DNA of 64,000 bases from Escherichia coli (lineage in GTDB: Bacteria > Pseudomonadota > Gammaproteobacteria > Enterobacterales > Enterobacteriaceae): assembly GCF_017348835.2 (NCBI RefSeq), contig NZ_CP071375.1; one strand, written 5' to 3'. A program made the position numbers and the translations under genes. The notes under the pieces were generated by a model that was not told where the DNA came from, did no database searches, and was given only the letters and a program-made list of their open reading frames with translations. This document shows, one piece after another, positions 19,356 to 23,380 of the stretch. Every line of letters begins with the position of its first letter. Position 1 is the first letter of the stretch.

Positions 19356-19429
19356 GAAAGACGCGCATTTGTTATCATCATCCCTGAATTCAGAGATGAA
19401 ATTTTGGCCACTCACGAGTGGCCTTTTTC
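19356..19429 (+). ncRNA. micA: MicA (SraD) small regulatory RNA
   Basis: Matches the MicA sequence as I recall it, ending in a GGCCACUCACGAGUGGCC hairpin plus U-run; lies between luxS and gshA. Confidence 0.85.
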
Positions 19430-22057: not shown

Positions 22058-22204
22058 GGTCTTCTCGCAAGTCGAAAAATATGACGCTACTTTAGCGTAA
22101 TTGCTTGATTTTGTCGCTGATGGCGAAGGAGAAGAAAATTCAGGAAATGGATAAAGTAGTTATTTAGAAATGAGATATTTTTGAAGGAAATTTTTTGGAG
22201 AAGA

Positions 22205-22327
22205 TGGTGCATCCGGGAGGATGACTCACTGGCGTTCGCCCTTCGGGCCGTTGCTAAAGCAACGTTATCCTTCCTGGTGCCTGCGATTAATTCCGCTACC
22301 TCTTCGATATCTTCATTGCTGAAGATT
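22205..22327 (-). repeat. Structured spacer element, degenerate copy, 3' of the last tRNA-Arg
   Basis: Begins with a tRNA 3'-end-like tggtgcatccgggagga on the plus strand, then about 105 nt shared with the 22478..22612 element. Confidence 0.6.
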
Positions 22328-22404
22328 TCGGAGAATATGGTGCATCCGGGAGGATTCGAACCTCCGACCGCTCGGTTCGTAGCCGAGTACTCTATCCAGC
22401 TGAG
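22328..22404 (-). tRNA. argQ: tRNA-Arg (anticodon ACG)
   Basis: Reverse complement reads GCATCCGTAGCTCAGCTGGATAGAGTACTCGGCTACGAACCGAGCGGTCGGAGGTTCGAATCCTCCCGGATGCACCA. Confidence 0.9.
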
Positions 22405-22477
22405 CTACGGATGCATCGGGAAAATTTATTTTACTGCTGATATTGATATCGCTACTAAAGCCATATCAAGTAAGAGA

Positions 22478-22612
22478 TGGTGCACCAGGGAGGATTACTC
22501 GCCTTGCGGCTCGCCCTTCGGGCCGTTGCTGGCGCAACGTTATCCTCCCTGGTGCCTGCGGTTAATTCCGCTACCTCTTCGATATCTTCATTGCTGAAGA
22601 TTTCGGAGAATA
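22478..22612 (-). repeat. Structured spacer element with a perfect 13-bp inverted repeat and internal hairpins
   Basis: caccagggaggat ... atcctccctggtg enclosing a gcccttcgggc hairpin and gttgc/gcaac; ends tRNA-like (..cctccctggtgcacca on the transcript). Confidence 0.6.
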
Positions 22613-22689
22613 TGGTGCATCCGGGAGGATTCGAACCTCCGACCGCTCGGTTCGTAGCCGAGTACTCTATCCAGCTGAGCTACGGATGC
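22613..22689 (-). tRNA. argZ: tRNA-Arg (ACG)
   Basis: Identical 77-nt copy. Confidence 0.9.
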
Positions 22690-22751
22690 ATCGGGAAATT
22701 AATTTTACTGCTGATATTGATACCGCTACTAAAGCCATATCAAGTAAGAGA

Positions 22752-22828
22752 TGGTGCATCCGGGAGGATTCGAACCTCCGACCGCTCGGTTCGTAGCCGA
22801 GTACTCTATCCAGCTGAGCTACGGATGC
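22752..22828 (-). tRNA. argY: tRNA-Arg (ACG)
   Basis: Identical 77-nt copy. Confidence 0.9.
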
Positions 22829-22892
22829 ATCGGGAAACTTACTTTACTGCATATTTTTTGATACCGCTACTAAAGCCGTATCAAGTAAGAGA

Positions 22893-22969
22893 TGGTGCAT
22901 CCGGGAGGATTCGAACCTCCGACCGCTCGGTTCGTAGCCGAGTACTCTATCCAGCTGAGCTACGGATGC
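22893..22969 (-). tRNA. argV: tRNA-Arg (ACG)
   Basis: Identical 77-nt copy, 3 nt from the tRNA-Ser. Confidence 0.9.
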
Positions 22970-22972
22970 AAA

Positions 22973-23065
22973 TGGCGGTGAGGCGGGGATTCGAACCCCG
23001 GATGCAGCTTTTGACCGCATACTCCCTTAGCAGGGGAGCGCCTTCAGCCTCTCGGCCACCTCACC
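22973..23065 (-). tRNA. serV: tRNA-Ser (GCU), long variable arm
   Basis: Reverse complement reads GGTGAGGTGGCCGAGAGGCTGAAGGCGCTCCCCTGCTAAGGGAGTATGCGGTCAAAAGCTGCATCCGGGGTTCGAATCCCCGCCTCACCGCCA. Confidence 0.9.
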
Positions 23066-23380
23066 ACACGCCTCTTACGAGTGCTTCGAAGAACTTGCTT
23101 ATCGCTCATCGTCGCTGCGTGGCGCACATATTACTTTCTGAGACTTATAAGTCAAACAATTTTTCCCACACTTTTATCGTTTGCACACTTCACGCTCAAT
23201 TAGTCTGTAAAAACGTCAAAAAGAGTGTTTTATCAACAGAAAAACGGAGGTCTGACAGATAGCAGTAATGTAAAAAAATGGAGACTTAAGTTGAATGAAC
23301 GGGAGTAAAGCGAAAAGACTATAGAGTGAAGGAGAAATTTTTAGGGTGCGTCTCACCGATAAAGATGAGACGCGGAAAGA

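Follow-up and report, generated by a model that had tools for sequence, protein, structure and literature searches.

On the minus strand of the window, by which we mean the whole 64,000-nt stretch of Escherichia coli DNA analysed here, ARAGORN and the Rfam tRNA model placed a tRNA-Ser(GCT) gene followed by four tRNA-Arg(ACG) genes, and sequence comparison showed the four Arg copies to be mutually identical (77/77), in agreement with what the first-pass annotation of this DNA had reported. The gene context, alaS-csrA-serV-arg(x4)-yqaB-yqaA-gshA, is the same as that of strain 7A (in K-12 coordinates) and of strain PE164, and judged from its sequence the array is the E. coli serV-argVYZQ operon. 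Two of the Arg genes, argZ and argQ, are directly followed by an element that we assign below to the tRNA-linked repeats (TLRs) raZ and raQ. The features of the locus are:

23128..23155, minus strand: promoter-like site upstream of serV, TTGACT-16-TAATAT (consensus scan, 9/12 matches)
22973..23065, minus strand: serV, tRNA-Ser(GCT) (ARAGORN; Rfam tRNA 56.8 bits)
22893..22969, minus strand: argV, tRNA-Arg(ACG) copy 1 (ARAGORN, Rfam tRNA), followed by a 64-nt short spacer at 22829-22892
22752..22828, minus strand: argY, tRNA-Arg(ACG) copy 2 (ARAGORN, Rfam tRNA), followed by a 62-nt short spacer at 22690-22751
22613..22689, minus strand: argZ, tRNA-Arg(ACG) copy 3 (ARAGORN, Rfam tRNA)
22478..22612, minus strand: TLR raZ, 135 nt, directly after argZ
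22482..22555, minus strand: predicted closing helix of raZ (inverted repeat I1)
22415..22477, minus strand: short spacer after raZ, 63 nt (repeat family D3)
22338..22414, minus strand: argQ, tRNA-Arg(ACG) copy 4 (ARAGORN, Rfam tRNA)
22205..22337, minus strand: TLR raQ, 133 nt, terminal copy, directly after argQ
22084..22098, minus strand: terminator-like hairpin and T-run (consensus scan), lying 107 nt past raQ, shortly upstream of yqaB

Promoter-like matches of the kind listed for serV are as frequent in shuffled sequence as here, position being the sole support for the site at 23128..23155, and sites like that at 22084..22098 are equally frequent in shuffles, which leaves it a candidate terminator only. 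The repeat finder recovered the tRNA 3'-end motif six times in direct orientation, in the four Arg tRNAs and in the two elements, and the trailer UCUCUUACUUGAUA that opens the 63-nt spacer after raZ also follows argV and argY. From one Arg gene start to the next the distances are 141, 139 and 275; of the values 285, 139, 141 and 80 given previously, 139 and 141 were right, 285 should read 275, and 80 is the distance from T arm to T arm between argV and serV, the gene starts of which are 96 apart. Every ORF at the elements overlaps tRNA genes or runs antisense, and the coding-potential check found no tpr-like ORF.

The TLRs of E. coli K-12 have reportedly been known since the work of Egan and Landy in 1978. 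Strain K-12 carries 22 TLRs over 10 loci, and their hallmark is a 3'-terminal stretch of 18-19 nt shared exactly with the tRNA or 5S gene upstream (Stenum et al., 2021, PMC8144298); in the same paper raQ, raZ and raV are named within an argY/Z/Q deletion in the strain table, and the cataloguing of TLRs is, as cited there, that of Rudd (1999). In the window, raZ begins one base past argZ and raQ one base past argQ on the minus strand. The last 18 nt of raQ are those of the tRNA-Arg 3' end at 18/18 positions (ATCCTCCCGGATGCACCA), and the 3' end of raZ matches it at 17/19 positions owing to two lineage-specific substitutions in the window strain; the internal copies read in other E. coli genomes match the tRNA end at 19/19, except for a related variant in F2_81. 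Window raZ is identical to K-12 raZ at 127/135 positions and window raQ to K-12 raQ at 123/133, and the flanking genes and spacers are the same, upholding positional orthology to the K-12 elements. Our own covariance model scored raZ at 145.8 bits and raQ at 144.1 bits, raQ occurs in all E. coli loci sampled, and the TLR core CGTTGC-N-GCAACGGCCCGAAGGG is also present in the K-12 tyrT repeats and in Lys-type repeats. By position and sequence, the elements, which had been taken for unrecognised pseudo-tRNA-like spacers, are the already catalogued TLRs raZ and raQ, related to RtT RNA. Both had been located in the first pass, raZ at 22478-22612 and raQ from 22205, although the end given for the latter (22327) falls 10 nt short of 22337.

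ARAGORN and the Rfam tRNA model RF00005 detected the five real tRNAs only and a cloverleaf in neither raZ nor raQ, whose tRNA likeness is limited to an acceptor/T-stem-like helix and ACCA. In Rfam the elements align to the RtT family RF00391 over their 3' 80 nt without reaching its gathering score of 45 bits: raZ scored 30.0-33.5 bits and raQ 21.2-28.0 bits, with model positions 47-130 matched (E = 3e-5 and 8e-4 in small searches), only the 3' ~80 nt of either element are alignable to RtT, and a scan of RF00391 at the gathering threshold returned no match to either. PGAP annotation likewise marks the tyrT RtT copies and not raZ or raQ. Arg-type TLRs are thus missed by Rfam/PGAP annotation because their scores lie below the RtT threshold. 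Literature searches found no expression data on raZ or raQ, and a pseudouridine-mapping preprint with a citation of the tyrT paper makes no mention of RtT in its text.

The hairpin GCCCGAAGGGC and the terminus ...CCTCCCTGGTGCACCA noted in the first pass are both present in the window sequence, and folding and repeat analysis bear out the proposal that the elements are structured and that their terminus repeats the T-arm/acceptor 3' end of the tRNA. The predicted fold of the intact copy, raZ, is far beyond chance (MFE -69.9 kcal/mol, z = -9.6, 0/200 shuffles as stable), and that of raQ is weaker (MFE -44.5 kcal/mol, z = -3.5). The predicted parts of raZ are a 5' hairpin, a small hairpin, a 14-bp closing helix enclosing three small hairpins, and an ACCA tail. 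In the closing helix the 5' arm GCACCAGGGAGGAU (22542-22555) faces the 3' arm AUCCUCCCUGGUGC (22482-22495), and the surrounding inverted repeat I1 has arms of 17 nt (22482-22498 / 22539-22555) that are 94% complementary and contain the perfect 13-14 bp. The two lineage-specific substitutions of raZ sit in the 3' arm of this helix, while the closing helix of raQ contains mismatches. The Arg-type module as a whole comprises about 115 nt, with two variable 5' hairpins followed by the conserved core AACGUUGC-loop-GCAACG-GCCC-GAA-GGGC-GAG-hairpin-GAGUAAUCC, and its terminus is the copied last 18-19 nt of tRNA-Arg, consisting of the T-stem 3' strand, the acceptor 3' strand and ACCA. Since the upstream GCACCAGGGAGGAU pairs with the copied tRNA end, the RNA is closed by a helix resembling an acceptor/T-stem, from which ACCA protrudes as a 3' tail.

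The perfect 13-bp inverted repeat, described in the first pass as a property of the element in general, is present in window raZ but is a rare lineage-specific variant. Among 5,426 complete E. coli genomes the perfect-repeat variant CTGGTGC is exact in one, that of the pig isolate PE164, and a near-variant, CTGGAGC, occurs in F2_81, likewise from pig; PE164 and F2_81 both have the array layout of the window. The remaining genomes with an internal copy have at least 2 differences from the query, the other copies that were read carry CGGATGC, and CTGGTGC was not found in the other genera sampled. The two substitutions add 9.4 kcal/mol of predicted stability over the tRNA-type end. The helix, bulged elsewhere, is perfected in window raZ, which is a rare derived state, and this is best explained by a recent change in the window lineage through one template-switch ('quasi-palindrome correction') event, in which one helix arm would have been copied onto the other arm. 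Alternatively, the double substitution may represent two independent substitutions or a retained ancestral state. An ancestral and selected perfect repeat of 13-14 bp, overwritten in other strains by gene conversion from the tRNA 3' end, would agree with the 5' strand GCACCAG, the exact complement of the window's CTGGTGC, being kept in Escherichia, Enterobacter, Silvania and Phytobacter despite two mismatches to the tRNA-type 3' strand. We nevertheless regard such an ancestry as very improbable, since the one exact genome and the one near-variant are pig isolates with the window layout, no other genus sampled has CTGGTGC, and one derived change confined to a small clade is by far the more economical explanation.

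More widely, the same core was found in 120 loci of Enterobacterales and other Gammaproteobacteria, where it adjoins tRNA-Tyr, Lys, Arg(ACG) and Pro genes, together with copies that end in the 5S rRNA 3' end. The last 19 nt of the element match the upstream tRNA with 0-1 mismatch in 74 of the 95 tRNA-adjacent copies. In an alignment of 20 Arg-type copies representing 11 genera, pairing holds in 94.4% of cells, compared to 85.8% in shuffled and 28-50% in slid controls, and double-sided changes are seen in 14/33 pairs. The Arg-type copies of these 11 genera have a common fold with covariation support, in which the invariance of the two core hairpins is partly built in, as the genome scan demanded that sequence. 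Compensatory changes preserve the closing helix in copies whose 3' end no longer follows the tRNA: one copy in a Citrobacter MAG (L209) has an A-U to G-C change next to an unchanged tRNA, the second copy in the same MAG has GCA/UGC changed to AUG/UAU, and in Hafnia a T-stem pair within the helix has changed from G-C to A-U. When the 5' strand of the closing helix was compared with its own tRNA type, the preference was clear for Tyr (9.8 vs 6.6 bp for other types) and weak for Lys, Arg and Pro (about 7 vs 6-7 bp), and we do not claim cross-type covariation, because these tRNAs differ too little in their T stems.

The element of Yersinia nurmii consists of tRNA-Arg positions 36-58 (23/23 nt), a 63-nt insert and then positions 60-77 (18/18), and that of Serratia grimesii is laid out likewise, except for a single mismatch in each flank; the element of these two species reads as a tRNA-Arg 3' half with an insert of about 60 nt in the T loop. 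A scan of viral contigs with a 16-mer core gave 91 matches, which is about chance by our own estimate with two degenerate positions, and real TLRs were present only in L034 (Tyr type) and L072 (Lys type); L040 and L041 were rejected as unrelated palindromes. In the phage and plasmid collections, nearly all matches were chromosomal sequence filed as phage or plasmid, and these collections gave no evidence of the element travelling on mobile DNA.

The statement in the first-pass annotation that the long spacers are placed differently in K-12 proved correct, the K-12 spacings being 275, 139 and 275 as against 141, 139 and 275 in the window. K-12 has a third TLR, raV, after argV, where it stands between argV and the normal 64-nt spacer, and the window lacks exactly this 134-nt block, its argV-argY spacer being the K-12 spacer minus raV and one SNP apart. 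Both K-12 and the window carry four tRNA-Arg genes here; of the copy-number change by unequal recombination that had been suggested, recombination between repeats stands as the explanation of the difference, and a change in tRNA copy number does not. Layouts were taken from ten E. coli loci read directly, and sequence and tRNA spacing distinguished seven layouts among them, with 2, 4 or 5 tRNA-Arg genes and 0-3 internal TLRs per locus. Matches to the tRNA occur in 1 to 9 places per E. coli genome (median 4). An internal-type TLR is present in 3,848 of the 5,426 complete E. coli genomes and absent from 1,578 (~29%), and strain p11B is also devoid of internal copies. A layout census of the 5,426 genomes with junction queries at a strict E-value was discarded, as >98% appeared to have both junctions 'covered' where BLAST had joined pieces of neighbouring tRNA and spacer units; only its identity bands were usable, in which 1,647 genomes reach just 90-95% and thus have no raV-like sequence.

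Most likely, the duplicated tRNA ends drive the precise gain and loss of TLRs. The six direct tRNA 3' ends, the identical tRNA genes and the similar spacers would make the array a recombination substrate, in which TLRs would come and go as exact blocks and tRNA copy number would drift; the presence of raV in K-12 and its absence from the window would then be due to recombination between array repeats.

As to the RNA, the elements are most likely co-transcribed with the tRNAs and excised by tRNA-processing nucleases. Both would be transcribed within the polycistronic tRNA precursor. There, each would present a tRNA 3' end, continued in the internal raZ by the same AU-rich trailer as after argV and argY and in raQ by another one. 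RNase E acting in the trailers, together with 3' exonucleases and possibly RNase P at the helix base, would then set each element free as a separate, structured RNA about 135 nt long, whose closing helix would protect its tRNA-like 3' end against mispairing with adjacent tRNA precursors. We infer discrete release and the nuclease roles from the precedents of tyrT rtT and RrB and from general knowledge of tRNA operon processing, and our best guess is that the elements may indeed act as processing signals or persist as stable RNA fragments, as the first-pass annotation had put forward. We know of no trans-acting function of raZ or raQ. A K-12 derivative without all 22 TLRs has been constructed (PMC8144298), and the elements are therefore dispensable in the laboratory. 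Taken as a whole, the account of raZ/raQ identity combined with co-transcription, nuclease release and gain and loss driven by tRNA ends is, in our judgement, very probably right.

The elements could instead be inert relics, either decayed tRNA 3' halves with an old T-loop insertion or scars of integrative elements, regenerated by gene conversion and tandem duplication. The Yersinia and Serratia copies, in which the tRNA-Arg 3' half carries a T-loop insert of about 60 nt, speak for such an origin, as do the greater degeneracy of terminal copies and the free loss of copies between strains. Integrases that cross over in the T loop also leave a tRNA end of 18-19 nt, as reportedly described by Williams in 2002, and the duplicated tRNA end fits this footprint. 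However, the covarying helices and the compensatory changes in the closing helix are signs of selection on base pairing. The same core is also seen after 5S rRNA genes, where a T loop does not exist, and hardly any genuine phage or plasmid record contains the element. In an attR scar, the tRNA 3' fragment would be continuous and not split within the T loop. We therefore consider inert relics possible, at well below even chances. Much further removed is a role in terminating or attenuating transcription of the tRNA operon, of which the first pass had raised termination. GC-rich hairpins do lie inside the elements, Lys-type copies are each followed by a hairpin and T-run, raQ is the last feature of the operon, and other TLRs are located between or beside terminators, such as rrnB T1/T2 (PMC8144298). 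Yet on the transcribed strand a hairpin with U-tract is found at neither element, the sole minus-strand site being the one 107 nt beyond raQ, the closing helix is followed by ACCAUCUC with no U-run, and transcription has to continue past the internal copy into argQ, the next tRNA gene, so that termination by these elements is hardly credible.

Functional trans-acting RNAs have more in their favour than terminators and are nonetheless improbable. The elements would then be tRNA 'top half' mimics, acceptor/T-stem minihelices with ACCA, and would serve to titrate or guide factors that bind tRNA, candidates being RNase P, the CCA-adding enzyme, T-loop modification enzymes and EF-Tu, or they would be sponges or regulators as proposed for RrA/B/F. 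The fold kept with covariation in 11 genera, the compensation that maintains the closing helix also in copies with a 3' end diverged from the tRNA and the occurrence of the core across Gammaproteobacteria all point in this direction, as does the in vitro binding of Hfq and CsrA by three 5S-type TLRs (PMC8144298); a deletion of argY/Z/Q together with raV/Z/Q, which lowers tRNA-Arg2 16-fold and not 4-fold (PMC13170351), is a hint only. Against this, the function of TLRs is not known so far according to Stenum et al., the rtT phenotype was retracted, each of the 19 tRNA-operon TLRs has an InvenireSRNA probability for CsrA binding of <0.01, and the strain without all 22 TLRs could be built (all PMC8144298); furthermore, ~29% of E. 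coli genomes do without an internal Arg-type copy, and no tRNA-like fold was recognised in raZ or raQ by ARAGORN or by the Rfam tRNA model. On a similarly speculative level, TLRs including raZ and raQ might be selected RNAs across Gammaproteobacteria, consisting of a T arm with a T-loop expansion of about 60 nt and an acceptor-like, ACCA-tailed closing helix, with a cis effect on the maturation or abundance of the co-transcribed tRNAs or a role as decoys for top-half enzymes; if so, exact gain and loss of copies would tune the effect between strains.

The window elements are in any case already known, being catalogued repeats that lie where they are expected, and in its departure from K-12 the array shows ordinary variation mediated by repeats. 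The TLR family itself has reportedly been known since 1978, is widespread in Gammaproteobacteria and has a covarying fold, with no known function beyond the in vitro binding of Hfq/CsrA by the three rrn copies. Useful leads are the compensation in the closing helix independent of the tRNA and the expanded T loop of Yersinia and Serratia, and natural strains with 0-3 internal copies constitute a ready allelic series.

Among the known systems, 3'ETS-leuZ is a functional tRNA-precursor spacer, and neither sponge-type pairing nor Hfq binding of its kind is known for raZ or raQ. It is an sRNA sponge acting via Hfq (Lalaouna et al., 2015, as cited in PMC8144298); like raZ and raQ, whose release would be comparable, it is a spacer RNA that the enzymes of tRNA processing free from the transcript of a tRNA operon, but it is short and unrelated to them in sequence. 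RrA, RrB and RrF are the TLRs of rrnA, rrnB and rrnD, where they lie between two terminators, and their release by RNase E at the copied end has been proposed (Stenum et al., 2021, PMC8144298). They resemble raZ and raQ in combining core hairpins (AACGUUGCGAAGCAACGGCCCGGAGGG) with an end that copies the 3' end of the upstream stable RNA, and differ in copying the 5S rRNA end, in their flanking intrinsic terminators and in GGA motifs that bind CsrA. RtT RNA (rttR) is reportedly made up of the 178-bp repeats of the tyrT operon, as attributed to Bosl and Kersten in 1991. Its 3' ~80 nt are homologous to the Arg type, with AACGUUGC..GCAACGGCCCGAAGGGCGAG..GAGUAAUCC followed by a tRNA-specific end, and it too has the copied T-stem strand in a closing helix and lies downstream of a tRNA in one transcript; in contrast, its 5' half is unrelated, it copies the tRNA-Tyr end where the Arg type copies that of tRNA-Arg, and its hairpin CCAAGGUUCGA..CGAGCG is absent from the Arg type. 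K-12 raV, raZ and raQ belong to the same locus and occupy the same places after argZ and argQ, with 92-94% identity to window raZ and raQ, and the two strains differ in that the window lacks raV and that the end of raZ matches the tRNA at 19/19 positions in K-12 and at 17/19 in the window, where it yields the perfect closing helix.

By sequence, the tRNA array in the window is the serV-argVYZQ locus, flanked in matching E. coli records by alaS-csrA upstream and yqaB-yqaA-gshA downstream. The tRNA genes were called with ARAGORN and the Rfam tRNA model, while the promoter-like and terminator-like sites are consensus matches only.

Features of the serV-arg array in the window
23128-23155, minus strand, promoter-like TTGACT-16-TAATAT, about 60 nt upstream of serV
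22973-23065, minus strand, tRNA-Ser(GCT) (serV)
22893-22969, minus strand, tRNA-Arg(ACG) copy 1 (argV)
22752-22828, minus strand, tRNA-Arg(ACG) copy 2 (argY)
22613-22689, minus strand, tRNA-Arg(ACG) copy 3 (argZ)
22478-22612, minus strand, raZ element, 135 nt, after copy 3
22338-22414, minus strand, tRNA-Arg(ACG) copy 4 (argQ)
22205-22337, minus strand, raQ element, 133 nt, after copy 4
22084-22098, minus strand, terminator-like hairpin plus T-run, 107 nt past raQ and just ahead of the yqaB start codon

The four tRNA-Arg genes are identical (77/77). Short spacers of 64 and 62 nt follow copies 1 and 2, and the 198-nt spacer after copy 3 consists of the 135-nt element plus a 63-nt short-type spacer. 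A repeat finder returned the tRNA 3'-end motif six times in direct orientation, once in each of four tRNAs and once per element, and a single inverted repeat with arms at 22482-22498 and 22539-22555, and the predicted folds reached -69.9 kcal/mol (z = -9.6) for raZ and -44.5 kcal/mol (z = -3.5) for raQ. The tRNA calls, repeat finder and folding thus confirmed the first-pass annotation of a tRNA-Arg array with structured elements, with minor changes: the long spacing between gene starts is 275 and not 285, the value given as 80 was measured from T arm to T arm, and the second element extends to 22337 rather than 22327. ORFs around the elements were rejected as spurious. An Rfam gathering-threshold scan of the window also detected the sRNA MicA (19356-19427, plus strand, 83.9 bits) and naRNA4/CssrE (12681-12758, plus strand, 76.4 bits), both expected for this chromosome region.

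Sequence comparison identifies the two elements as raZ and raQ, known tRNA-linked repeats (TLRs) related to RtT RNA and situated at their known locus, being identical to their K-12 counterparts at 127/135 and 123/133 positions, respectively. Both match model positions 47-130 of Rfam RF00391 (RtT RNA), at 30-33.5 bits for raZ and 21-28 bits for raQ, below the gathering score of 45. In K-12, PGAP annotates the tyrT locus with four RtT sRNA features and the arg locus with none. The part common with the tyrT repeats reads ...CGUUGCC-loop-GGCAACG(A/G)CCCGAAGGG(C/U)GA-hairpin-GA(G/A)UAAUCC, followed by a tRNA-specific end. The class name tRNA-linked repeats is used by Stenum et al. (2021; PMC8144298), according to whom these repeats were first seen by Egan and Landy (1978) and catalogued by Rudd (1999), and number 22 at ten loci in K-12; the phenotype originally ascribed to rtT was later retracted. 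The strain table of that study lists Δ(argY/Z/Q, raQ/Z/V) as a component of the strain without all 22 TLRs, which makes raV, raZ and raQ the copies at the K-12 arg locus.

In strain 7A, a K-12-coordinate genome, the Arg-gene spacings are 275, 139 and 275, so the long spacers of K-12 sit after argV and argZ, whereas the window has one only after argZ; the first-pass statement that K-12 places them differently is correct. The argV-argY spacer of the window equals that of K-12 minus an exact 134-nt raV block, plus one SNP. At one boundary of this block lies the tRNA 3' end and at the other the copy of it carried by the element, each followed by the trailer TCTCTTACTTGATA; recombination or slippage between direct repeats would delete or insert a block arranged in this way. 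The difference between the strains is ordinary variation mediated by repeats, in keeping with the suggested recombination, but a change in tRNA-Arg copy number is not involved, since both the window and K-12 carry four genes. Strain PE164 shares the window layout with 99.9% identity over 1.1 kb, and terminal raQ was present in all ten E. coli loci read.

Layouts of ten E. coli loci, from sequence and tRNA spacing (L, long spacer; S, short spacer; M, 102-nt spacer with only the element's 5' hairpin; term, terminal raQ)
K-12 (7A): 4 tRNA-Arg genes; L,S,L + term
Window, PE164, F2_81: 4 tRNA-Arg genes; S,S,L + term
19KM1863: 4 tRNA-Arg genes; L,L,L + term
p11B: 4 tRNA-Arg genes; S,S,S + term
O157:H7 F6321, H52_982342: 4 tRNA-Arg genes; S,S,M + term
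NCTC9104: 5 tRNA-Arg genes; L,S,S,L + term
HUSEC2011: 2 tRNA-Arg genes; L + term

Across 5,426 complete E. coli genomes, the tRNA had a median of 4 matching places per genome (range 1-9) and the 3' part of an internal-type TLR was found in 3,848, while 1,647 reached a maximum identity of only 90-95% to the K-12 argV-raV junction and thus hold no raV-like sequence. The 102-nt spacer that separates tRNA-Arg genes 3 and 4 in H52_982342 and O157:H7 F6321 carries a variant TLR 5' hairpin (tattctccgtaatcatcagtgatgatgg...) without the TLR core or the copied tRNA end, and resembles raZ after an internal deletion.

The perfect 13-bp inverted repeat noted in the first-pass annotation is present in the window, but it is not the typical state of the element. 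Outside the window, PE164 and F2_81, the 3' end of the element in K-12 and all other E. coli loci read is CCUCCCGGAUGCACCA, identical to the tRNA, opposite the upstream strand GCACCAGGGAGGAU, giving a predicted closing helix of 13 pairs with two opposed single-base bulges. The window raZ has CCUCCCUGGUGCACCA instead and both bulges are gone; reverting the two bases lowers the predicted stability by 9.4 kcal/mol (-60.5 versus -69.9 kcal/mol). A 75-nt query across the raZ end was exact in one of the 5,426 genomes, the pig isolate PE164; F2_81 (also from pig) carries CTGGAGC at the variant site, all remaining genomes with an internal copy differed at two or more positions from the query, and the variant was not found in any other genus sampled. 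On this distribution the perfect palindrome is therefore a rare, recent change specific to one small lineage. Two adjacent changes perfecting an imperfect palindrome are reportedly, from the work of Ripley and of Lovett and colleagues, a signature of template-switch "quasi-palindrome" mutation, and such an event is the probable origin of the double change in raZ.

Conservation of the fold was assessed on an alignment of twenty Arg-type copies representing 11 genera. In the RNAalifold consensus, the paired share of cells was 94.4%, versus 85.8% for column shuffles and 28-50% for slid partners, and double-sided changes occurred in 14 of 33 pairs (7.6 expected). Free covariation is seen in both 5' hairpins and in the third core hairpin. 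The stems of the two central hairpins show no variation, which is partly built in because the search pattern required them; copies later found with a covariance model differ there in loops only, e.g., GCCCG[A/C/U]AGGGC. Because the 3' strand of the closing helix follows the tRNA, this helix is largely invariant; where that strand has drifted, the 5' strand compensates. In a Citrobacter MAG (L209), copies at 85-216 and 357-488 have 3' ends drifted from the adjacent tRNA (GGACGCACCA and GGATATACCC); copy 1 changed A-U to G-C beside a tRNA retaining the standard end, copy 2 changed GCA/UGC to AUG/UAU, and in Hafnia one T-stem pair changed from G-C to A-U. In a cruder family-wide test, a better fit of the 5' strand to its own tRNA type than to other types was clear only for Tyr. 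Our Arg-TLR covariance model also gave a weak reverse-strand match in the window (22427-22557, plus strand, 24.4 bits, E ~0.009), most likely a by-product of the palindromic helices.

A core-pattern scan of species-representative genomes found at least 151 copies at no fewer than 120 loci, the matches listed coming from Enterobacterales, Pseudomonas, Stenotrophomonas, Marinobacter, Marinobacterium, Alloalcanivorax, Amphritea and Gilliamella.

Nearest upstream tRNA of TLR copies among the matches listed
Tyr: 34 copies
Lys: 33 copies
Arg(ACG): 14 copies
Pro(TGG): 11 copies
Pro(CGG): 3 copies
None within 700 nt: 52 copies

The last 19 nt differed from the upstream tRNA by at most one mismatch in 74 of the 95 listed copies adjoining Tyr, Lys, Arg(ACG) and Pro genes, and several copies read that had no tRNA within 700 nt end in the 5S rRNA 3' end. 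TLR-bearing serV-arg arrays are also present in Hafnia, in Enterobacter cloacae (both S,S,L,term) and in Brenneria (L,L,term). The Arg-type TLR of Yersinia nurmii (L185, 2034-2169) consists of tRNA-Arg positions 36-58 (23/23), a 63-nt insert and positions 60-77 (18/18), and that of Serratia grimesii (L179, 1962-2084) is laid out alike with one mismatch per flank; both are a tRNA 3' half with the T loop expanded between positions 58 and 60. This points to an expanded T loop as the form in which the family originated or spreads. In Escherichia and Enterobacter the GGUUCGA-plus-first-hairpin part is lost and the T-stem strand joins the core directly. The element was not found in genuine phage and plasmid records. 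At the edge of an IMG/VR contig (2836850911_000005; L072, 12253-12574), Lys-type TLRs are repeated three times in tandem with a period of 153 bp, each having the tRNA-Lys 3' end as its terminus and a hairpin plus T-run after it; this "viral" contig probably includes host flank beside a tRNA integration site. Two loci on IMG/VR contig 3300047160_006838 (L040 and L041) were rejected as unrelated long palindromic intergenic repeats (aaaggtgtctggaaccgttgccgGCAACGGCCCGAAGGGtgc...ggttccagacaccttt) with a chance 16-mer match.

An earlier suggestion that the elements act as terminators found no support, as neither raZ nor raQ carries a terminator-like site and the nearest on the transcribed strand lies 107 nt past raQ. 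Operon position, copied tRNA end, conserved fold and exact gain and loss of blocks were shown, and the raZ trailer is the one after argV and argY. The elements would be transcribed from the serV promoter within the polycistronic precursor and freed by the enzymes that separate the tRNAs, namely RNase E, acting on the AU-rich trailer downstream of each ACCA, and 3' exonucleases, with RNase P possibly cutting at the foot of the minihelix-like stem. The closing helix would shield the tRNA-like 3' end against mispairing with 5' strands of adjacent tRNA precursors, and this protection could alone explain the conserved pairing. Release from the precursor, as outlined for raZ and raQ, is also what Stenum et al. 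propose for RrB (PMC8144298). Deletion of argY/Z/Q together with raV/Z/Q reduced tRNA-Arg2 16-fold, versus the 4-fold expected from gene dosage with three of four genes lost, and editing of the remaining argV tRNA was also lower in the argY/Z/Q deletion (PMC13170351); the 16-fold drop, from a deletion that merges TLRs, tRNA genes and operon end, hints at a cis role of the TLRs.
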